64,000 nucleotides of DNA, from NCBI GenBank assembly GCA_030295235.1, contig AP026135.1:930001-994000 (forward strand), in the 5' to 3' direction. Positions 2,221-52,549 of this stretch are shown in pieces (position 1 is the stretch's first letter; each line of letters opens with the position of its first letter). The notes beneath the pieces were generated by a model. The model saw nothing but the letters and a program-made list of their open reading frames with translations, did not search any database and was not told the DNA's origin. The translations under genes were made by a program, and so were the position numbers. The stretch is from Fistulifera solaris (Eukaryota).

Positions 2221-3951
2221 CTAATCATCAATGTCTTCCACACTAATGATAAAGCCGGTCTGCCGCATGTGAAAGGCCTCGTCGTAGTCATCGTCGGACT
2301 CATCGTAATCGTCGCGACTACCATATTGACCATCTGGGTAACCATCGTCGACCGTTTGTGAAAGTATCGGTGCTGTGGCATCCTCTTCGTTGTCATCGCC
2401 CACACTAAGGGAGTCAATCACCATTCCCTCCAGATCGGACATATAATTCGACCTATCGTCAATATTTGAATTGGAACGATATCGTCTGTGCTGATCGTTC
2501 GAATTTTCGTCTCGATCGCTACCTGAATCGAATGAGTTGAGTCTTCTGTCACTGGGTGGTGCTGTCGACATTAAAGCGGGAGAATCTTGAAATCGAGCGT
2601 TCGGTGGCGGTGATTCTACAACCTCTTGTTGCGAAACAGGCTTATCTTCGACATCTTCCACCATTTCGGCAACATCTTGTTCGGCCTGTATTAATTTTTC
2701 TTGCGCGGCACGATCCTTTCTCAAGAGATGCATAAAGTAGAATGCGGCCGCTAATAGCACCAGTGCTACACCGACGACCAGGATCGATATGATGGCAGCA
2801 TCACTGCCTGACGACCCGATTTCCTCTTCCGGGGTGGTAATTGCGTAGCTGGAGAGGAATATAGCAGAGGGATTGTCGGATATACCTGTCATTAAGGTCA
2901 TATACCCCAAAGCATTCAACTCAAATGGATAAGTAAACAGTGTGTCTTGCAGATCTCCCCAAAGCTTTGCATCATATTCATTGACAAGCATGGTGTAATT
3001 AATCAATTGCTGATAATCGATCGCGAGGGGCAAAGATGTGTTGTCGGCTCCGGGGGCAATCTCACCAATTCGAGTTTGTTTGATATAGCGTGTTTCGACG
3101 TGACCAACAAATACGGGCGAAAATGGATTAGTTTCGGTGTCGTCCCAGAAACGTTGGATGAAATTACTCGTCTCCAATTGCCATCGCGGCGGTCGGAAAT
3201 CTTGCAATGCGCCTTGTAATACTATGGTGAGAAAATGCTCCGCGAACAAGTCACTCTGAAGCGACGGCATGGAACTAGGGAGCTCACTCGGCGATGAACT
3301 CGGATAAGGAGACGGAACCTCGGAAGCAATAGTTGTCGGAGCCACTGATGGCCATTCAGTGCGGTCGGCGTCAAAGTCTGTCGGGTATGCCGTTGTGGTT
3401 GGCTGGTAACTGGCGGAAGGGGCAGTGGACGGTACGAGCGAAAGAGACGGGCTAATGCTGGGGAAAATGCTAGGAGACGTGCTTGGCTGTATCGTTAAGG
3501 TCGGCTGTAATGTAGGCAAATGAGAAGGAACGGCGCTTGGGCTATCCGATGGATAAACAGAAGGTATCGTTGACGGAGGATGTGATAGGGAGGGAGCTGA
3601 TGAAGTAGTCGGGCTGGTCGACGGTCGTAGTTCTGTTGGTTGAGAGGGCTGGTTTGATAGTCCAATTGGCGCCAGGGACGGCGTAGGTGCATTAGACTGT
3701 TCATTTGGTACTTCCGTCCCTTGATAGGGTGTCGCCACAACTTCTTCTACAAGTCCACGCTGTCTGACATTCGATTGAGGTGAACTGAAATACAAGAAAA
3801 TACCCCCACGCCATCGGATGGCCGGAATCATTTGAAGCGCAGCAAGAACGTATAATACTGCTCCCGCGCTTAGAGATAGTGACAAAAGCCTCTTCAACAA
3901 CCTTGCTTGTTGGTTGTTACGGACAAACATCCTCGTAAACTGCGCCGCCAT
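2221..3951 (-). CDS. Membrane-anchored Pro/Ser-rich (PSxxPS repeat) surface protein
   Basis: 576-aa ORF with N-terminal hydrophobic anchor, about 25 PSxxPS/PT repeats, a globular region, a TM helix (AAIISILVVGVALVLLAAAFYFM) and an acidic tail. Confidence 0.8.
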   Translation of the reverse strand: MAAQFTRMFVRNNQQARLLKRLLSLSLSAGAVLYVLAALQMIPAIRWRGGIFLYFSSPQSNVRQRGLVEEVVATPYQGTEVPNEQSNAPTPSLAPIGLSNQPSQPTELRPSTSPTTSSAPSLSHPPSTIPSVYPSDSPSAVPSHLPTLQPTLTIQPSTSPSIFPSISPSLSLVPSTAPSASYQPTTTAYPTDFDADRTEWPSVAPTTIASEVPSPYPSSSPSELPSSMPSLQSDLFAEHFLTIVLQGALQDFRPPRWQLETSNFIQRFWDDTETNPFSPVFVGHVETRYIKQTRIGEIAPGADNTSLPLAIDYQQLINYTMLVNEYDAKLWGDLQDTLFTYPFELNALGYMTLMTGISDNPSAIFLSSYAITTPEEEIGSSGSDAAIISILVVGVALVLLAAAFYFMHLLRKDRAAQEKLIQAEQDVAEMVEDVEDKPVSQQEVVESPPPNARFQDSPALMSTAPPSDRRLNSFDSGSDRDENSNDQHRRYRSNSNIDDRSNYMSDLEGMVIDSLSVGDDNEEDATAPILSQTVDDGYPDGQYGSRDDYDESDDDYDEAFHMRQTGFIISVEDIDD

Positions 3952-4408
3952 CGAATGTCAAACGATAGTCGAGAGTCGAGACTTACTAGCGTAAAGCGTG
4001 TGTTTTGTGTTTCAAAGGTGCAGAAAACATCCTCACGTCTGAGCGTGACACAGCTATGTCAAGAAAAAGTGGTTCTCGATGAGGTTGCGAGTTGCGACAA
4101 CAATCGACTTAAAGTCCCTTTCGTCGTTTTCCTTAGACCCTACCATAGACAAGTTAGAGGTCAGTTTCTTGTAAACGGAAAGTTAGTTGTGACGCCCGGT
4201 ACTTTCGCGACGGTTCTATTTGTTTCTTAGATGAAATAAGAACGGTCCTTTTTAGAACAAATTGGATACAATGCGAGTCCTTGTCGATAATCTAAATTAA
4301 CTTATGACCGTCTATGATAATCATCAAAGAATACAAAATAACCGCCCTCGACTGCATCCCATGACATGAGGCCATCCGAAAATAGAATCTGTAAGGACTA
4401 AAATACGC

Positions 4409-4834
4409 TGACAAATTCCGGGAGCGCACAGATAGCTCACCCGAACCGAAATAAAAAGCTTTATGCACACTCTGCCTTTGATGGGGCAGAATGTAATGGT
4501 AGAAAGAAACCAAAAAAAAGAGGATGGAACTCAATTCAATTTCATTATTCTATTATTGTGAGCACTACGGTGATTTTGCTTGTTTCACATGAACCAGAAG
4601 AGAAGAAAAATCAGAATGTACTGAACACGTAGGATTTGAACTCGTGCCATCTGCCTTTCTGTCGACGTGGCAAGAGAAGAACATTATGTGGCACTGAAAT
4701 TCTCATCCAAAAGTATCCAAGACTGAGATATTCAAACATGAACCGGAAATGTCTCACTGAGTACCACTGAGAAATTACCATTGAAAACATTGAGTACCAG
4801 TAGTGCAGTACTCATTCTTTCCCGAAATCTGTCA
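4409..4834 (-). repeat. 3' LTR (426 bp)
   Basis: About 5 differences from 5837-6260 by eye, mostly at homopolymers. Confidence 0.95.
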
Positions 4835-5673
4835 CTCCCCGTCTTCTCGCAGGCACGTTGTACACTTTTTGCTTTCACTGCATCTCCCCGTCCACAAAGA
4901 ATATTGTTGAAATCAGTACCAACAGACTTTCCAACAGTAGTAAACATAACTGGCGGAGGCTCCCCGGGAGGCAAGACAACTGGCGTACAATATCCAGTAC
5001 AGTCAGGTAAAACGTCATCCAAGAAAGAAACAACTGACTTAGTACTCAAGAAACCAAGAGAACGATGACTGTAATCCAATAGAGTAACCAAAGAACAAGT
5101 ATCCGTATCCGAAGAACAAGTATCCAAGACCACAATGTTATCGGAGCATGTTCCATCGAAAACAACTTCAGTATCATCGCCGTCCGGATAAGAATTGTTG
5201 AATACAACAACAGGAACATGGATTGAATTGTCGTGTACACTTTCTTCGGAAGGATTAGGATCGTTAACAGAAATGACATCTATCGGTGATACACTCTCAA
5301 CTGGAAGGTCGTAGAGAGAGGAGGGGGCCATAGTATCGAATGGTTCCTGCTGAAGAACATGGTAGGAAGTACTACGGACGAAGGGCTTAACAGAACGACA
5401 ACGGAAGTTGTCGAACTGCTCCATAGTAATCGAAAACCAGTCATTTCCAATCGGGTCATTATCGGAGTGGCGTGCAACGACGAAACGTAGAAAACACGTC
5501 AGCAATTTCTTCTCTCCCCGTTTGACTGGAAGAAGAGCATCTATTTCTGACGATGTCATCGAAAGCAGCGCGTAGATATCAGTACGACCAACGGAAAGAA
5601 GTGACATCTTTAACGTACTGTCATTATCAGGACCAAGCAGTACATTATCAATGACGTGGTCGAATGCAGCCAT
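4732..5673 (-). CDS. Truncated Gag-like protein of the LTR element (313 aa), reading into the 3' LTR
   Basis: MAAFDHVIDNVL...LKMSL...DIYALL...EIDAL...GEKKLL..F...PIGNDWFSITMEQFDNFR resembles the N-terminus of diatom Copia Gag. The ORF crosses the PPT as EKTGSD and stops inside the LTR. Confidence 0.7.
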   Translation of the reverse strand: MAAFDHVIDNVLLGPDNDSTLKMSLLSVGRTDIYALLSMTSSEIDALLPVKRGEKKLLTCFLRFVVARHSDNDPIGNDWFSITMEQFDNFRCRSVKPFVRSTSYHVLQQEPFDTMAPSSLYDLPVESVSPIDVISVNDPNPSEESVHDNSIHVPVVVFNNSYPDGDDTEVVFDGTCSDNIVVLDTCSSDTDTCSLVTLLDYSHRSLGFLSTKSVVSFLDDVLPDCTGYCTPVVLPPGEPPPVMFTTVGKSVGTDFNNILCGRGDAVKAKSVQRACEKTGSDRFRERMSTALLVLNVFNGNFSVVLSETFPVHV

Positions 5674-5820
5674 TGCGGGGGGAAGGTGGGAGTACCGGAA
5701 ACAACATTTGTGACACAAGCACGGACCGGTGCGAAATTGTTCACAAACCACAAACAAGAAGCTTGACAAACACAACACCAATGATGACAAGCAACAAACA
5801 ATCAACAATCACACAAGAGA

Positions 5821-5836
5821 CTTGCGACTGTTAATC
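5821..5836 (-). promoter_or_regulatory. Primer-binding site complementary to tRNA-Asn(GUU) anticodon arm
   Basis: Minus strand reads LTR-CA|GATTAACAGTCGCAAG. Its complement TGCGA-CTGTTAA-TC is a stem strand, a 7-nt anticodon loop with GTT, and two bases that pair back with the stem. Confidence 0.75.
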
Positions 5837-6260
5837 TGACAAATTCCGGGAGCGCACAGATAGCTCACCCGGAACGAAATAAAAGCTTTGTGCACACTCT
5901 GCCTTTGATGGGGCAGAATGTAATGGTAGAAAGAAACCAAAAAAAAGAGGATGGAACTCAATTCAATTTCATTATTCTATTATTGTGAGCACTACGGTGA
6001 TTTTGCTTGTTTCACATGAACCAGAAGAGAAGAAAATCAGAATGTACTGAACACGTAGGATTTGAACTCGTGCCATCTGCCTTTCTGTCGACGTGGCAAG
6101 AGAAGAACATTATGTGGCACTGAAATTCTCATCCAAAAGTATCCAAGACTGAGATATTCAAACATGAACCGGAAATGTCTCACTGAGTACCACTGAGAAA
6201 TTACCATTGAAAACATTGAGTACCAGTAGTGCAGTACTCATTCTTTCCCGAAATCTGTCA
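5837..6260 (-). repeat. 5' LTR (424 bp)
   Basis: Near-identical to 4409-4834. Confidence 0.95.
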
Positions 6261-6363
6261 TACGCCGTTCTTCTAGCATTTCCAATTAAATGTATCAATT
6301 TACATTCATTGCAAATAATGATTGTATCCATGGAAATGAGCGAAAATTCATATGAATCCCTTT

Positions 6364-6640
6364 TACCTACATGATGCGCGTCTCACGACACATCATAGTC
6401 TGGGACTGGCCTTCTCTCACGATCTACGATGAAAAGCCTTGCGAAACGTTGTCTGCGTATTTACTCTCTAGACAACAGTGTTGTCTGTTTTTCGCCACGA
6501 CTGCACTTCAGTCATGAATCAGTATCCTTCGAGCGACAATGCTGCCTACAATACGTTCGTTTAGCAGATTTCTTGAGCTCCATTTGTCATTATTGCAGTG
6601 AAATAGGCTTAAGCAGCGTTTGTACTACACGCCTGTACCT
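6364..6640. repeat. Old interspersed repeat relic
   Basis: 6364-6410 matches the reverse complement of 16259-16305 at 40/47; 6475-6640 aligns with 48620-48880. Confidence 0.65.
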
Positions 6641-6859
6641 TCCATCAAATGAATTCGATACACTGAATCGATTTCTTTTCAAATCATCAACTTTGGCAAG
6701 AGCGATTATTACTTGCACTAGAATAAGAACTTACACGTCAAAGCTGGAAGTCAGAAGCTATGCTACCAAAAATTTAGAGGCTCCAATTCCAAGAACAAAA
6801 AATTACGGAGTACCCGGTACCGGTACACTTGCCGTACACCGACCTTGAGAACCACGCCT

Positions 6860-7345
6860 TTGGAACGTTCAAAGAAATTCTGTATGATCAAAAACACCGT
6901 GTCCTGAATTTCTGGAACTGACACACAATTTCTGTATGACCCAAAATACTACGTACCGTGTCCCGAACTGGAAAGTGTACACAGAATTTCTGTATGAATA
7001 GAAATATGGAAATCAAGGAGAATATCTGTATGACCCAAAACATCGTGTCCAGAGTTTTGGAATGTTTAAACAGAATATCTGTAATGGTAGGATTTGAAAC
7101 ACCGTGTTCAGAATCTTTGGAGCGCGCACAGAATATCTTTAGGATCCAAAACACCTTTTCAAGTCCATAGAATATATGTAAGACCAAAAACACCGTGTCA
7201 GGAATTTACTGGAACGTCCACCCAAAACACCGTCCCCGGAATCTCTGTAAGATACACAGAATTTCTGTATCATGAATTACACCTTAAGCAGCATTTCTGG
7301 AACCTATATAGAAGCTGTGCAGACCTAAATGCACCGTACTAAAAC
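6860..7345. repeat. Degenerate ~50-60 bp tandem minisatellite
   Basis: About 8-9 recurrences of CAGAATWTCTGTATGACCCAAAACACCGTGTCC..GAATTTCTGGAA. Confidence 0.8.
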
Positions 7346-7718
7346 ATTTTCCGTTTACTGCCATCGCACGCCGTTCTTATATTCTTCGCATACAAAGTAA
7401 GTTACTGACAAATACGATCGGCATCTTTTTAGACGAACTACTCCGTAATTCTAGTTTCAATTCACCACCCATGACTGAATATTCCAGTCATGAAGTGTAT
7501 TTATAGTTAGTAAAAATCCGTGTTACTGGCCTAGCGGCAACGTTACTTTCGCCCCACCGAGGATCGTTGATCGTTGATCGAGGTCAATCGCGTCGTCTTC
7601 GCCATTCGAATTCAATGCTGTAGAGCTTTCTTCACCACCATTTTCCTCTTGATAATAGAGTCGACGTGACAACGTACATTCATTACTTCCGCTAGCAAGG
7701 TTCCTTTTTTTGCAAAAC

Positions 7719-37581: not shown

Positions 37582-40500
37582 TTAACTAGAACCTTCGGAG
37601 GAGGGAGGAGGCTGTGTCGTACCAAGTTGGTCTGTTCCATCGCCAACTTCCGCAACAAAAGATGACTGTCCTTTGATATTCGCGTTGCTGGCATTGCCCT
37701 GAATCAATAGTCCAAGCTTATCGATCAAATAAGTGGGCCGTGATGGTCCGCAGACATCTGCAATCACTGTGAAAACAACGAAGGCAGCTACCGTTGCCTG
37801 AACGATTGTCAAGAACAAAACGACGGCGAATTTTACGAAGAAGGTAATGGTTGTAAAAAGCATGATAGCAGCGGCAGCAAGCGTTGTGAAGGCAGCCGCT
37901 AGGATAGATGGACCCATCACTATCAACGAAGACTTTGCGCGGGCGTGACGGCTGGCTTCACCAGGTAAGGCTGAGTAAGCATGGGAGAAGTGAATTACAA
38001 AATCGCAAGAGATCCCGATTAAGATGGAAACACAAATCGATTCGATGCTGTATGAGATAAACAAGGAAGCAGTGAGGAGAGGATAGACATATGCACAAAA
38101 GGCGTCCAGTAGAACTTACAATCCGAGCGTCCACCCTAAAGCCACCATTCCAGCAACAACAGACGCAAGGACATATGTGATTGCTATTCCAGAAAAGAAA
38201 GTTAGCACAAAGCTATGCGAAGAGAAAAGAATTACTGCTGCTCCGACGGCTACCGCCGTAGCTGAAGATACATAAGCTGAGCTAATCATGCTCGCGTTTG
38301 TATCAAAATACCAATAGTCCTCGGAAGTGAAATACATGCCCCCTATACCAGAAGGTGCATTTTTTTTCTCATTCTGAAACCAATTTTCAATCAAATTCCA
38401 CTCGCCCTTAGTAATGTCGAACTTTGTGTCAAATCGAATCCGGCCATTAAAGCGTGCGTACATGATTGTCACCTTGCCGTTCCGCGTCAGCACAAATGTT
38501 TCGCTGTATTCTTGACTCCAATTATGTATGCAGGCATGAAAACTATTCTCATCCATGGGTAGGCCATCGGCATTAGCACAGTGATCCAAATAGATTGAAT
38601 CGGTCGCATTCAATGGCAACGCAGACTGATTTCGAAGCCAGCTGTCAAATCGATCGATTGGACAGTCTTCATCTTCAGAGTCAGCGAATTCTTGGGAAAA
38701 GAGTCTTGCGCAAAAATCCCGCAAGTAAACTTGAGTTTCTAGCTGCGACGGTTGGAAAGTGTCATCTATAACCAGCTGAGTAAAAGAGGTGGGGTCGTTA
38801 TGATTGCCAGTGTCGGCTGGTTTAATGCCCCACACCACGTAAGTTGAACTGCCAGATGACCTAAGCAAGCTTTCAAAAGAATTTTCTCCCGCCAGCTCGC
38901 ACTCTTTTCGAATTCGTTTGATGCGCGAAGTAAACGAACATCTCCATTTTCAGGGGGTTGAACTTTCATAGCATAAATGATGCATACAACGAAAATCGCA
39001 CCGACAGCTGCAAACATGAAGTACCGAGTCGCGTGAACGGCCTTATAATATCTGCTCAATATTCCGTGAATCAAGCTAGGGCGCTCGTCAGAATCAACGA
39101 TTTTCTCCGGCGGGGGTCGGAAGCAGTTGCAACACAAGCGGTCAAAGCATCCTGATTTGTACCTTGATCTATCATAGATACACAGTGCAGGGAAGACCAA
39201 CAAGACGCAAAGCATGTAAGTCAATGATATCAGTAACCCACAGAAAACTGCAAAGCATAAAATTGGGGCCACGGGACACACTGCCGTTCCAAAGAAAGCT
39301 ATCGCCGTTGTCAGGCTCGTCAGAAACATGGCCAGCGCCGAGTCCGGAAAAGCGCGAGCCGCCACTTCACTCGTCTCAGCGTCAGGACCGAGCTGTATCC
39401 GAGCGTTCTTCCACTTATCAACTGCCACAAAAACATCGTCGCAGCCCAAAGCAAACACAACGAAGATGCCGATGAAGTTAAGGAATGGAAAAAACGTAAG
39501 ACCGCCAATAAAGGTGTAAACGAAATACGCCAACGGAAAGCTGATAATGATTTGCAAAAAGCCTATCAACGTCAAGAAAATGGATTGTGTGTGAATGAAC
39601 ATTGCAATAGTGGTGATCACAGCGCTTGCCGTTGCCAAAGCCATGTCTCTCGAAAGGGCGTTGTCGACTTCCAACTCGACGAAGTGTTCCTCTCGAGTGT
39701 CGAAAGCTCCCTCAATACGCTGCGTACCCCTGTCAAAGTTACCCTCCTTTTGGTATAGTTCATCAATGCTGTCACGATAGGTAGCGAAAATGGAAGACGT
39801 GTATCTAAGGGGCGACGCCGAGCCGTAATCAACGTCCACAAGGGTTACAGAGAATCGCTCAGGACATGGTTCTGGAAGATCCGCCCCGTCTATAAGAGGA
39901 TCAAAATCCGCCATTGACTCGTCCACGCATTCAAATAATGACTCTTGTAAGCTGGGATTTTGCTGGTTGTAGGTCACCCAATCATCGGCCAGTTTCACAC
40001 AATCCGAGTACAAACCATCGGGTATCGTGAGACGAACGTAGAAAACAAGTGAAAAGGGAGGCAGGCACCCACTTTCTCCACAGCCGAAACATAGACCGTT
40101 CTCTTCCAGATACTTCTGCGTCTTTTCTTCACTGAGACAAAAGTCTAAAAAGGTGTCATGATTCAACAAGACGTTTGGCTCGGAAACATCGTTCACTTTC
40201 CAGATCGGCCAGAGATGATCCCCGAAGATCATATCTTCTCCGTACCACGACAAGTCACAGTTGGAGATGACGCTTGTGTTGCTGACGGACTGTAGCTTCC
40301 GTTGAAATGCCGCCATGTTGATGGGCAAATGTCTGTCCAATCGGTCTTGTTTCTGCAAAGTATAGTCCTCATATTCCAGCACTGCCTCAAGTCTACGACG
40401 GTCGCCTTGTGTTTCCCATCCCGGTTGAACATTGTTAATTAATTCATCCCAAAATTCTCCGTCTTCATCTCGAAACAATCGGAGTCTATCGTAGAACGTC

Positions 40501-40895
40501 AGGATAAACTGACTGTGACGATTCGCAATCACCGTTCCTCTTGATGTCCATCCGGCGTTATTGACCGTCACCGTGAAATCTCCAACGATCATGGCAATCG
40601 CCGACAGGCCCAAGCTAATGAGGAAAGACGCCCAGAGATAGAGACAAGGACGATTCGCCACACGAGCGGCTTGACGCTCCCAAATCGAGTAGTCATCCGG
40701 ATGCTTTCGAGCGAGATAACTTCCCTTTTTCGAACTTCCTTCGACCTTGGTTTCAATGTCGTATTGCGGGCCTTCTTCTTCTATAGGTGCTCCGTGGATG
40801 CTTTCCATACTGTCAACACCGACCAAGTCGCCGCTGTAATTGGTAGGAATGGTCTCTAATTGTCCAAAGTCGGCATTTTTGCTAATGCGGACCAT
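37582..40895 (-). CDS. Dispatched/Patched-family RND sterol-sensing-domain protein, copy A
   Basis: FFPFLNFIGIFVVFALGCDDVFV..DKW, AMFLTSLTTAIAF, ILIGISCDFVIH, MGPSILAAAFTT. Intron 38048-38119; frameshift near 38870. Confidence 0.92.
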
Positions 40896-41728: not shown

Positions 41729-44700
41729 TCATTTCGACTCAACAATCGAAAGATGAGAAGACTCCTCGTCAGATGGAGCGGAATTCGATGCTTCTTCTGA
41801 CCCCTTCACCATTGACCACAAGGACTTGACGAAAGACGCCGGTTTTGACGGACCAAAAATGTCGGCAATCACTAGAAAGATGAAAAAGCTGGCCACTGTA
41901 GTTTGGATAATGGTAGAGAGCAAAATGGTCGCAAACTTCACAAAGAAAATGAGTGAAGTGAAAAGCATAATAACTGCCGCAGCGACGGTGGTAAAGGCGG
42001 CAGCTAGAATAGAAGGCCCCATCTCGACCACGGCTGTCTTCGTCCGAGTGCTTCGGTCTACGTCACCAGGCAACAAGGCATAAGCGTGCGTAAAGTGTAT
42101 CACAAAGTCACACGAGATTCCGATCAAAATCGAAAAGCAAATAGCTTCAAGACTGCAAAACCATCGGAGAAAGGACCTGTGAGGAAAAATTGGAAGCATG
42201 CTATCAGTAAACCGACATTTCGACACACTTACAAGCCCATGGTCCAGCCGAGCGCCACTAAACCAGCGGTGACCGAAAAGAGCACGTACGAAATCGCGAT
42301 GGTAGAGAATAGTGTGAGCATAAAGCTGAGTGATGTGAGAAAAATCACAGAGGCAGCTATTGCAATGGCAATCCCCGCGCCCACATAGGCTGTGCTGATC
42401 ATGCTGGCGCTTGTGTCATACCACCAGTAGTCATCTGACGTGAAGTACATCTGGTTGACACCTGACGGGGCGACATGGCTTCGCTCATTTTCGAACCAAT
42501 CTTCGATCAAATGCCACTCGCTTTTCAATTCGCTGAAAGGGCTATCATATCGGACCCGGCCCCGAAAACGAAAGAACATGATCGTGACTTGACCATCAAG
42601 CGACAAGACCCAATCTTTCTGATACTCTTGGCTCCATTTCGTCATGCAAGCATCAAAATCTTTTGGAGGAACAGGTACAGCTATCGCATTATTGCAGTAT
42701 TTCATGTACACTTGATCTTTCTGGTCCGCATCAACTTGCGATTGCAGCCAGCTATCGAATTGTTTCATGATGCAAGTCTCGTTTTTTATCGCGTCGGCAA
42801 AGTCCGTCTGGAAAATTCTTTCACAAAAGTCGAGCAAGTATATCTGGTTTGCTGTTTGAGACGGCTGGAACGAGCGATCAAGAACCAACTGTGTGAAAGA
42901 TGATGGGTCACTATGTTTTCCCGTATCAGCTGGTTTGACACCCCACATAACAAACACAGATGTGCCCGTTTCTTTCTGGAGCTCCTCGATTAGAAGATTC
43001 TGTCTCCATTCGTTACTTTTTTCGAATTCATTTTTCGGACGGAGCATCCGGACGTCGCTGCTAGTAGGGATCTCCATGCGAGATGCAAAGGCAGCACACA
43101 ACGCGAACACGCCCAGTATCAAAACGAGCAATCCGTAGCGATAGAAATGAATCAGCTCATGAAAGCAAGCCATCTGTCGTCGAATGAAGCTTTCTCGTCG
43201 GAAACGAGTATCATTATGCTCCTTAGCCTCTTCTTCACTCTCCTTCATTTTCTGCGTCAAAGTGGCTGCTTTGTCATAGATACAAAGCGCCGGAAACACC
43301 ATCAAGATACACATCACGTAGGTCGTTAAAATCAGTAAGCCGCAAAAAACAGCAAAGCACAAAATTGGGGCTACGGGACATACTGCTGTTCCAAAAAATG
43401 CCACCGCTGTCGTAAGACTTGTAAGAAACATAGCCAGTGCTGCATCTGGCAAAGCTCGGGCGGCCACTTCCGTCGTCTCGGCGTCGAGGCCGAGTTCAAT
43501 ACGTGCATTCTTCCATTTGTCAACCGCAACGAAAACATCATCGGCACCCAATGCAAACAGAATAAATACACCGATGAAGTTAAGGAATGGGAAGAACGTT
43601 AGGCCGAATACAAAAGTGTAGACGAAGTATGCCAAAGGAAAGCTAAGGCTGATCTGTAGCAAACCAACCACTGACAGTAACGGGGAGCGTGTATGAGTAA
43701 AGATGGCGATGGTTGTGATCACAGCACTTCCCGTTGCGAGAACCATGTCCGTAAACAATACTCTATTGATTTCGAGTTGCACAAAATGCTCGCGTTTCGT
43801 GTCATAGGCTGCCTCAATTCGCTCGGTTCCCTTATCAAACTTATGCACATTGTCGAATAAAAGTTGAATACTATCGTCGTCGATTTTCGTAGCGAAGATG
43901 GAAGACGTGTAAGTCAATGGATTCGAAGCATCAAATTTGGTATCAATCAGTGTCGGCGCAAAATGATTCGAGCAAGTGCTTGGTAAATTCAAACCATCCC
44001 TCGTAAAATCGTAGGACGTCTTTAGATCATCTACACAATCATATAGCTCGTTTTGGAAGTCGGGATTTTCGTTGTTGTAAGTCACCCAATCAGCTGCCAG
44101 CGTCTCGCAATCATTGTACAGACCATTCGGCACCGTCAGACGAGCATAAAAAATGATGGAATAAGGCGGAAGACAACCGTTGTCACCACAGCCGAAACAT
44201 AGGCCGTTGTCCTCTAGAACCGACTGTGTCTTTTTCTTCGCTGTGGCAGAGATCCAGGAATGTATCTTGACTGAGAAATACATCATGAGGTTCCGCGCCG
44301 TCTTTGACTTTCCACACCGGCCAGAGGTGACGACCTCCAAGCATACGTATTCCGTACCAACTTAAATCACAACTCTCCAGCACGCTCGAGCTTCTGGCAT
44401 TCTGAAGCTTTCTGTAAAAGTCTGAAGATTCTACTTGAGTATCCAGGTGCTCTTCCACTTTCGCTGAAAGACGACGTCGAACAGAAGATTCCCAGCCAGG
44501 TTGAATGTTATTTAATAAATCATCCCATACTTCTCCAGTCTCGTCTTGATGAAGTTTCTCGCGGTTGTGATAGGAAAGAATATATTGGGCGTGTCGTTCT
44601 GATATCATGGTTCCGCGTGAAAGCCATCCCGTTTGATCGACTGACACCGTGAATTCACCAGCGACCATCCCGATCACAGAGAGAATCATGCTCATCAATA

Positions 44701-48428: not shown

Positions 48429-48619
48429 GTAGACATAATTTATTCATAAGTGCATCATTCGTATCAATAGCCTTTAAGCAAGGACACGATTTGATGCAGA
48501 CTAGCTGGTGTCATTCGGCTGGCTTTACTAGGAAAAGTCATGGGTTTGCCTTCCGCGGCATTTTGCCTTGCTGATAATTGTCTTCTATATTCACTATGAA
48601 TCCATAGTGTAAGCGACTT

Positions 48620-48885
48620 TTCTCCACGACTGCAATTCAGTCATGAATCATTGTGTTTCCGATCCAGACTGCTACCGAAGCTTCGTTCGTTTTCGTTGTA
48701 AAATAAGCTTCGTTTGTCATTATCATGAAGAAAATTCCTTCCGAAGCATTTGCAGTGCACGTCACGATGCTTCATGTCGAAGAGCCCTGCGGGTCGAGGA
48801 TATCCTTTTCACTACAAAGGCCAAAGTGTTGTTCGAATTTCGCCACGACTTCATTTCAGTCATGAATCAGGATCCTTCTAAAGCT
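48620..48885. repeat. Interspersed repeat with ~215-220 bp internal periodicity
   Basis: CCACGACTGCAATTCAGTCATGAATCA near 48625 and CCACGACTTCATTTCAGTCATGAATCA near 48843; aligns with 6475-6640. Confidence 0.65.
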
Positions 48886-51713: not shown

Positions 51714-52198
51714 GATAGTTGTAACTATCGGTGAATACAATGTAGTCCGTAATGAAAATGATCTGCAATGACAACAAGGTGACGAGCGATAATAGCGAGG
51801 GGCGCGGCCTCGAAGGAAAAAGGGCGTACCGGTACCCGGATATTGCGTATTCCCTCTTCATCATTACTTTTCAAGCAGACTTTGCACCAATTTAGCTTTG
51901 ACGCTTACCACCAAGTATAATGTATTCCCAAACAATGATCGACGTCGATTTAGAGCTCAAAAAGTAGAAAAGAGGAAACATGCAATGCTTCGAAAGTCTA
52001 CGTGAATTTTACGTAGCTGCCGTGGGAATTTTATCGATGTTGCTAATCAAAAAGCTTGTGTTCTTTGATCTCGCTCGTATTCGGGTCTATGGTTACCTAC
52101 GCCATTTTTCTCATTCTAGCACACGAAAACGCGCCCCCACAATTACTCTGCGGATTATGACTACAATCAAATCGTAGAAAGGGCGAAATGATGCAATG

Positions 52199-52442
52199 CC
52201 AGAATTTCTGGACCACCCCAGATTTTCTGTATGAATGAAATGCAACTGGTCCAGATATTCTGGACCACCCCAGATTTTCTGTATGAATGAAATGCAACTG
52301 GTCCAGAATTTCTGGACCACCCCAGATTTTCTGTATGAATGAAATGCAACTGGTCCAGAATTTCTGGACCACCCCAGATTTTCTGTATGAATGAAATGCA
52401 ACTGGTCTAGAATTTCTGGACCACCCCAGATTTTCTGTATGA
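52199..52442. repeat. 52-bp tandem minisatellite (4.7 units) with internal 21-bp palindrome
   Basis: Unit CCAGAATTTCTGGACCACCCCAGATTTTCTGTATGAATGAAATGCAACTGGT starting at 52199, 52251, 52303, 52355 and 52407. Confidence 0.97.
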
Positions 52443-52549
52443 TCTCATTCTTGTTCCTGCTACTCTGCTAAAAAGCTGAATTATTGCTTGCGCTAGTCTA
52501 CCTTTCATATTCATTTCGAAACCCTTTGGGACGACTACTGAATGTAACA

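Follow-up and report, generated by a model that had tools for sequence, protein, structure and literature searches.

A non-autonomous Copia-like LTR element with a primer-binding site complementary to the anticodon arm of tRNA-Asn(GUU)

A complete long terminal repeat (LTR) element of 1852 bp, located at positions 6260-4409 on the minus strand of the 64-kb stretch of DNA analysed here (referred to as the window), carries at positions 5836-5823 (minus strand) a primer-binding site (PBS) that is complementary to the anticodon arm of tRNA-Asn(GUU). The most probable explanation of the whole, given a probability of roughly 0.75, is that of a recent non-autonomous Ty1/Copia-derived element that would be primed by a 5' fragment of the cytoplasmic tRNA-Asn(GUU) ending at C40. 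Priming by a half-molecule of tRNA-Asn is supported by the complementarity of the site, its adjacency to the LTR, the likely presence of the matching tRNA in a sequencing run that contains most of the sampled words of the element and its surroundings, and the conservation of the site in a distant metagenomic relative. Half-tRNA priming defines the hemiviruses (PMC8515867) and is confined to Copia lineages (PMC6317226, PMC10886601). The mechanism itself is therefore known, though uncommon, and what seems to be new is an uncommon tRNA together with a host group in which such priming is seemingly undescribed.

Structure of the element

The direct repeats were found by aligning window positions 4300-4950 against 5730-6380, and their borders were read on the minus strand. 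The features of the element are as follows, in the order of its transcript.

6261..6265, minus strand: target-site duplication, upstream copy, GCGTA, the same 5-mer being present at both flanks
5837..6260, minus strand: 5' LTR, 424 nt, TGACAG...TTTGTCA, aligned against the 3' LTR
5823..5836, minus strand: PBS, GATTAACAGTCGCA, complement of tRNA-Asn(GUU) positions 27-40
5819..5822, minus strand: AGTC 3' of the PBS, kept in the metagenomic relative L104 and not accounted for by the tRNA
5674..5818, minus strand: remaining untranslated leader, from the PBS block to the ATG
4732..5673, minus strand: open reading frame (ORF) of 313 codons, ATG at 5673 and stop at 4732, with a Gag N-terminal domain
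4835..4850, minus strand: polypurine tract (PPT), GCGAGAAGACGGGGAG, directly 5' of the 3' LTR
4409..4834, minus strand: 3' LTR, 426 nt, aligned against the 5' LTR
4404..4408, minus strand: target-site duplication, downstream copy, GCGTA

The two LTRs enclose an internal region of 1002 bp and are identical in 421 of 426 alignment columns, the differences comprising three substitutions and two one-base indels. So few differences argue that the insertion is young, and on this measure the element is a recent one. Both LTRs start with TGACAG and end with TTTGTCA, and three independent lines of evidence set the border of the 5' LTR, namely the LTR-LTR alignment, the TG..CA termini and the identical GCGTA duplications. 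Direct LTRs with TG..CA termini, a target duplication, and a PBS and a PPT placed next to the 5' and the 3' LTR, respectively, make up the structure of an LTR retrotransposon, and a length of 1852 bp with a 313-codon ORF sets the element apart from TRIMs, which are shorter than about 1 kb and have no ORF.

The first-pass annotation, drawn from the letters of the DNA, had described a PBS that lacks the usual TGG and abuts the LTR. Both points are borne out, since GATTAACAGTCGCA follows the last LTR base (A, 5837) without a gap and no TGG occurs in the first 56 nt 3' of the 5' LTR. Its position needs a small correction: the 14-mer occupies 5836-5823, and the span of 5821-5836 given earlier adds AG. 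Within the 64-kb window this 14-mer occurs once, even with two mismatches allowed.

The LTR also contains CTCAGTGGTA and GAGTTCAAATCC (6188-6197 and 6057-6068, minus strand), which resemble box A and box B, lie about 130 nt apart and recur in the 3' LTR. A reading of these motifs as a Helenus-type element was rejected because an Rfam search of window 4300-6400 gave nothing tRNA-like at E<=1; the tRNA-like pol III sequence that characterizes the LTRs of Helenus and TRIMp3 was not found in this element. ARAGORN found no tRNA in the 64-kb window.

Elsewhere in the window, Pfam matched 6 of the 11 other large ORFs, all of them to cellular families (CCB2/CCB4, eIF-2B, Sin3, SET and two sterol-sensing/Patched paralogues), and no other retroelement-like content was found in the 64 kb. 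The two paralogues with sterol-sensing/Patched domains stand in tandem at 38766-40895 and 42229-44340 (minus strand), with repeated stretches that are 72-76% identical at the DNA level. A 100-nt segment occurs three times (6431-6530, 48560-48659 and 48779-48878), its copies being 62-72% identical and having ..CGCCACGACTGCA.TTCAGTCATGAATCA.. in common; the copy at 6431-6530 lies beside the LTR element, at the start of the ORF 6429-6848. Positions 52147-52458 hold a tandem array of about six units with a period of 52 nt.

The primer-binding site and tRNA-Asn(GUU)

The complement of GATTAACAGTCGCA reads TGCGA-CTGTTAA-TC, that is, five stem bases, seven loop bases with the anticodon GTT, and two further stem bases, which pair back with the 5' strand of the stem. 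When the arm was completed to 17 nt by adding three stem-closing bases and searched for in IMG/VR viral contigs, 97 viral loci were obtained, giant-virus MAG contigs among them, and ARAGORN called a tRNA-Asn(gtt) with the arm in 95 of the 97 (58 in the first 60). When the 30 nt that follow the LTR are reverse-complemented, they match viral tRNA-Asn genes over exactly 14 nt, beginning at linear nt 26-30 of the tRNA-Asn(gtt) genes, so that the earlier assignment of the complement to tRNA positions 27-40 with a GUU anticodon holds. By comparison, none of the 129 other tRNAs from these viral loci is complementary to the site over more than 7 nt, the tRNA-Met genes in the pool (n = 3) reach only 4 nt, and no tRNA 3' end in the pool, with CCA added, has a complement of more than 7 nt. 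The site therefore differs from the iMet-complementary sites of hemiviruses in its tRNA, yet, like them, is complementary to an internal tRNA segment ending on the 3' side of the anticodon stem. For the 14-bp RNA duplex of PBS and tRNA-Asn, the predicted energy is -20.9 kcal/mol. Eukaryotic tRNA-Asn carries queuosine at position 34 and t6A at position 37, both of which would fall within this duplex; tRNA-iMet, the established half-tRNA primer, likewise carries t6A37.

Both ends of the pairing can be placed. Immediately 5' of the arm, viral tRNA-Asn genes have AGAGCG (76 of 98) against GAGACT in the complement of the element; an extension of the pairing to positions 21-26 was rejected on this mismatch, and the pairing therefore ends at position 27. 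At the other side, the LTR end ..GTCA is not complementary to arm positions 41-43 (GCA), and the pairing therefore begins exactly at C40. The 16-mer of the window that runs past position 27 was found in 5 viral loci, which are phage-like and include 0 tRNAs, and these were counted as chance. Likewise, the pattern CAGATTAACAGTCGYAAGTC had 0 matches in viral contigs, and the pattern CAGATTAACAGTCGYAAG had 6 loci in prokaryote genome contigs, all in bacterial MAGs and counted as chance. Taken on these comparisons, the match between the site and the tRNA-Asn arm appears to be more than chance.

The first-pass annotation had set as a test that a tRNA-Asn of the host should match over at least 11 nt. 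Run contigs were compared, at 80% likeness, with a giant-virus tRNA-Asn locus, L023 (tRNA at 274-347, arm at 301-317), and the best-matching run, X1, which contains 0.83 of the sampled words of window 3500-7500, yielded a 414-nt contig at depth 26 (three unrelated contigs taken for comparison have depths of 15-18). This contig spans L023 294-336, which corresponds to the 3' strand of the D stem, the entire anticodon arm, the variable loop and the T loop of tRNA-Asn, with 4 differing letters and no gap. It has GGGACTATTAGCTCAGTAGG before the match and GCCATGGTCCGCTCTTTTTGTCAC after it, and a cloverleaf can be built from its ends, with acceptor strands GGACTAT/ATGGTCC, a discriminator G and T5 right after the gene. 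By these features, the contig carries a nuclear-type (pol III) tRNA gene. The 3' strand of its T stem, CCGCC, cannot pair with ACAGG of L023, and 3 of the 4 differences must therefore lie in the 5' strand of the T stem, so that no more than one can fall among the remaining 38 bases, which include the 17 of the arm. The X1 tRNA is thus complementary to the PBS at 13 or 14 of 14 positions, a bound and not a base-by-base reading, and with at least 13 of the 14 PBS bases the outcome favours the earlier interpretation. The one unplaced difference could fall in the arm, even in the anticodon, although a tRNA of other specificity, with the same stem and its sole difference in the anticodon, is unlikely.

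A second X1 contig, at depth 220 and with AT-rich flanks, carries across L023 280-322 a tRNA that differs from the tRNA-Asn core at 5 positions and has a discriminator A; this contig is probably organellar. Runs X2 and X4 had no contig on L023, and X3 had none on the L023 tRNA; these runs are no evidence either way.

Relatives of the element

The N-terminal part of the ORF at 4732-5673 (minus strand), about 125 aa, is the N-terminal domain of a Copia-type Gag family, and the ORF continues through the PPT into the 3' LTR. Pfam matched no family on this ORF, and reverse transcriptase (RT), integrase and protease are absent; the element has no pol and hence lacks the Copia-type arrangement of RVT_2 with RT-RNase H last. 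The GCGTA copies at both flanks are the 5-bp duplication typical of Ty1/Copia, and 5-bp target duplications are reported for Copia families in PMC10886601. An exhaustive HMMER search of 1.84 billion representatives returned 124 relatives of the ORF at E<=1e-3, and all 124 align via their first 95-125 residues or so. The nearest three (P0002-P0004; 277-496 aa, from Logan and ENA assemblies) are 43-49% identical to it and share with it a VLPPGEPPP motif that lies beyond the N-terminal domain. Two of these three, P0003 and P0004, also have a C-terminal ..EKTGSD[RN]F.., whose counterpart in the window is the translated PPT with the first LTR bases. Since P0002-P0004 share motifs beyond the Gag domain, the window element is not a one-off deletion; it belongs to a diverged family of short, ORF-bearing non-autonomous elements with their ends kept. 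That relatives only 43-49% identical retain these features suggests that the family has long been propagated in trans and that its ORF has been under selection.

No match resulted from a search for longer homologous proteins with the window ORF, and an alignment-based search for related loci in viral contigs produced one weak, unconvincing locus, L103. A further homologous-protein search returned 11 proteins, none of the new ones extending upstream to the PBS, and the ORFs of the 64-kb window, scanned with Pfam, include no autonomous partner. One relative of greater length, P0030 (1377 aa, from a JGI contig of 8446 bp), has the Gag N-terminal domain and, after it, a segment containing IDRGAN[GC]G that is present twice, with no Pfam match; the motif looks like that of an aspartic protease, and P0030 may be a gag-protease with an assembly duplication.

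A link to pol was obtained from metagenome contigs, where an alignment-based scan gave 112 candidate stretches and 1 confirmed locus, L104. Its ORF at 73-1530 encodes a Copia-type RT (Pfam RVT_2, 3.7e-20) followed by an RNase H-like end, and this pol ORF ends at AAGGGGAG|TGACAAAATCC, where the junction of PPT and LTR start, GGGGAG|TGACA, is the same as in the window. About 480 nt after that junction stands ..TTTCATCA|GATTAACAGTCGTAAGTCAC, and the LTR end and PBS read ..TCATCA|GATTAACAGTCGTAAGTC. A repeat-rich leader then precedes a gag ORF, which at its N-terminus shares 38% identity with the window ORF. L104 thus has one LTR between the 3' end of pol and the 5' end of gag, a layout that represents either a tandem pair or an assembly in which two LTRs were collapsed; in either case, a pol whose last domains are RT and RNase H is found linked to the PBS, the PPT junction and the Gag domain. 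This is the Copia order, with which the 5-bp duplication of the window element agrees. The first-pass assignment to a Copia lineage rests on RVT_2 in L104 and on the 5-bp duplication, the window element itself having neither RT nor integrase. It is best called an ORF-bearing non-autonomous Copia derivative, and not an autonomous member, its lineage being indicated by L104 and the duplication.

The window and L104 agree at 21 of the 22 positions of the block TCAGATTAACAGTCG[C/T]AAGTC, within flanks of LTR end and leader that are essentially unalignable, in keeping with the expectation that the motif would be kept in related elements; at the DNA level this conservation refers to one relative, L104. 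The sole change in the block places a U opposite G28, a G·U-compatible transition that still pairs. The AAGTC that follows the 14-nt PBS (window 5819-5822, minus strand; L104 2001-2005) is also kept and is not complementary to tRNA-Asn positions 22-26. The leader of L104 contains at 2100-2290, between PBS and gag, a tandem array of roughly 16-nt units resembling GGGTTCAAGTCAAGTT, and its distance from PBS to ATG is about 900 nt, against 163 nt in the window element. A search with the L104 RT found no locus in viral contigs, and a protein-atlas search with the L104 gag returned unnamed clusters only.

Priming scheme, alternatives and known half-tRNA primers

In the most likely scheme, the copia/Ty5 mode with another tRNA, the window element would contribute its LTRs, PBS, PPT and Gag N-terminal ORF, and an autonomous relative that mobilizes it in trans would have to supply protease, integrase and RT/RNase H. 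A putative enzyme would cleave the tRNA-Asn within the 3' strand of its anticodon stem, between positions 40 and 41, and leave C40 as the new 3' end. The resulting 40-nt 5' fragment would anneal via nt 27-40 to GAUUAACAGUCGCA, directly after U5, and the RT of the partner element would extend it into U5/R. During plus-strand strong-stop synthesis, the 14 primer bases would be copied and synthesis would presumably halt at position 26, where the modified G26 of the tRNA is expected to block it. Such a halt after 14 primer bases would regenerate the PBS and explain its length.

Two alternatives keep the relation to tRNA-Asn and are about equally improbable. The site could be a relic of primer use by an ancestor, this copy not having been reverse-transcribed from it in the present host, as might be imagined for an element that has no pol of its own and no autonomous partner in the window. 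However, LTRs that differ by three substitutions and two indels, together with an intact duplication, point to a recent full cycle of retrotransposition; the PBS is perfect over 14 nt, as opposed to the one-base drift in L104, and a matching tRNA gene is present in run X1, all of which leaves the relic only a slight chance. The other alternative, given a similarly low probability, derives the primer from tRNA-Asn with no dedicated cut at 40/41, either by trimming of a stress-induced 5' half or another fragment, or by a cut inside the particle. The enzymology is debated, the 3' end of the Ty5 primer being attributed to internal cleavage mediated by the host RNase P in a review (PMC5371799), but the pairing begins exactly at C40 (..GTCA versus GCA), and any other end would produce a gap or a flap. 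Chance resemblance, the true primer being of the Tf1-type self-priming kind or a canonical tRNA 3' end further downstream, is very improbable: a 7-nt anticodon-loop motif with two pairing bases could, taken alone, arise randomly, but the longest complement in the element's own RNA (self-priming having been named as an alternative in the first-pass annotation) is 7 nt, at element positions 868 and 991, which are internal and not at the transcript 5' end as in Tf1, the LTR is followed by no TGG within 56 nt, 0 of 129 non-Asn tRNAs are complementary over more than 7 nt, and the block in L104 has stayed the same at all but one position despite its unalignable flanks.

Priming by the tRNA-Asn fragment is closest to that of copia and Ty5 (Hemivirus, Pseudoviridae), which use a 5' fragment of tRNA-iMet and likewise have a PBS that abuts the LTR, no TGG, a complement of the anticodon stem-loop and a 5+7+2 layout. 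The window element differs from them in its tRNA-Asn(GUU) in place of iMet and in being non-autonomous. The first-pass annotation had placed the site in the same register as copia, for which it quotes a 14-mer. An antisense tRNA-iMet oligonucleotide in PMC1797187 contains this quoted 14-mer, by count the complement of linear nt 26-39 of tRNA-iMet, and the 5+7+2 layout counted on it agrees with the shared register.

Primers other than iMet are already in print, and the novelty of the finding had been overrated in this respect. Kojima (2024, PMC10886601) described fungal Helenus and Puccinia Copia families whose PBSs are complementary to the anticodon loops of iMet, Tyr, Ile and Asp, and section 3.6 of the same source names tRNA-Asn-GTT as a primer type of fungal Helenus. 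Helenus resembles the window element in being a non-autonomous LTR element with a 5-bp duplication and an anticodon-loop PBS, and differs from it in having tRNA-like LTR sequence, no ORF and fungal hosts, whereas the window element has no Rfam match, a 313-codon ORF and a photosynthetic protist as its host; the likeness between the Helenus Asn PBS and the window PBS lies in the named primer type. Donnart et al. (2017, PMC5445492) reported for FunCo1, a Copia element of filamentous ascomycetes, the PBS ATTAAGAGTCT, which they describe as complementary to an internal region of tRNA-Lys. It differs from the core of the window site, ATTAACAGTC, at a single base, opposite anticodon position 34; FunCo1 uses tRNA-Lys and is autonomous and fungal, in contrast to the tRNA-Asn of the window element. 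In plants, Neumann et al. (2019, PMC6317226) listed half-molecules of tRNA-Ile in Bianca and of tRNA-Met in Osser, Bryco and Gymco-II, and their survey restricts half-molecule primers to Ty1/copia lineages, in which they are lineage-specific; where tRNA-Asn appears in that survey (2% of elements), the match is to its 3' end and not to a half molecule.

If the host is a diatom, the CoDi elements, which are Copia-like elements of diatoms, would be expected to include L104 and the parent of the window element. The CoDi paper (Maumus 2009, PMC2806351) contains no 'tRNA', 'primer binding' or 'PPT', and its sole 'PBS' is a buffer. No description of a half-tRNA PBS in diatom elements was found in the full-text literature, with Repbase entries, supplements and subscription journals outside the search, and such priming seems to be undescribed so far in this algal Copia-like lineage. 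The element would thereby add a protist lineage of Copia-like elements to those with half-tRNA priming, a mode known since copia, and would take this use of tRNA-Asn beyond fungi. PBS filters built on tRNA 3' ends, such as LTRdigest as applied to a diatom genome in PMC7466962, would drop or mislabel elements of this kind, and the site predicts a tRNA-Asn fragment ending at C40 in the host.

A wider and tentative proposal, which is possible and on balance doubtful, is that a marine stramenopile Copia clade switched to a 40-nt 5' fragment of tRNA-Asn(GUU) and carries along a long-lived parasite family that keeps only the Gag N-terminus. If so, the PBS would track the tRNA-Asn anticodon stem of each host, these algae would have a conserved tRNA-cutting activity at 40/41, and pipelines that demand a 3'-end PBS would systematically discard the clade. 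Hints in this direction come from the G·U-compatible change in L104 and from two metagenomic proteins among the 18 relatives with a called ORF beginning upstream of the gag Met, which were examined at the protein level: residues 4-9 of P0031 are VRLTVL and residues 18-23 of P0020 are KLTVL, both upstream of the gag Met. In one frame, GTCA|GATTAACAGTC translates to VRLTV. An L instead of A after VRLTV would imply a different stem-side end of the PBS and fits a translated LTR end with an Asn-type PBS, a weaker hint than the DNA block of L104, and the variants in P0031 and P0020 could possibly reflect covariation with the tRNA of another host.
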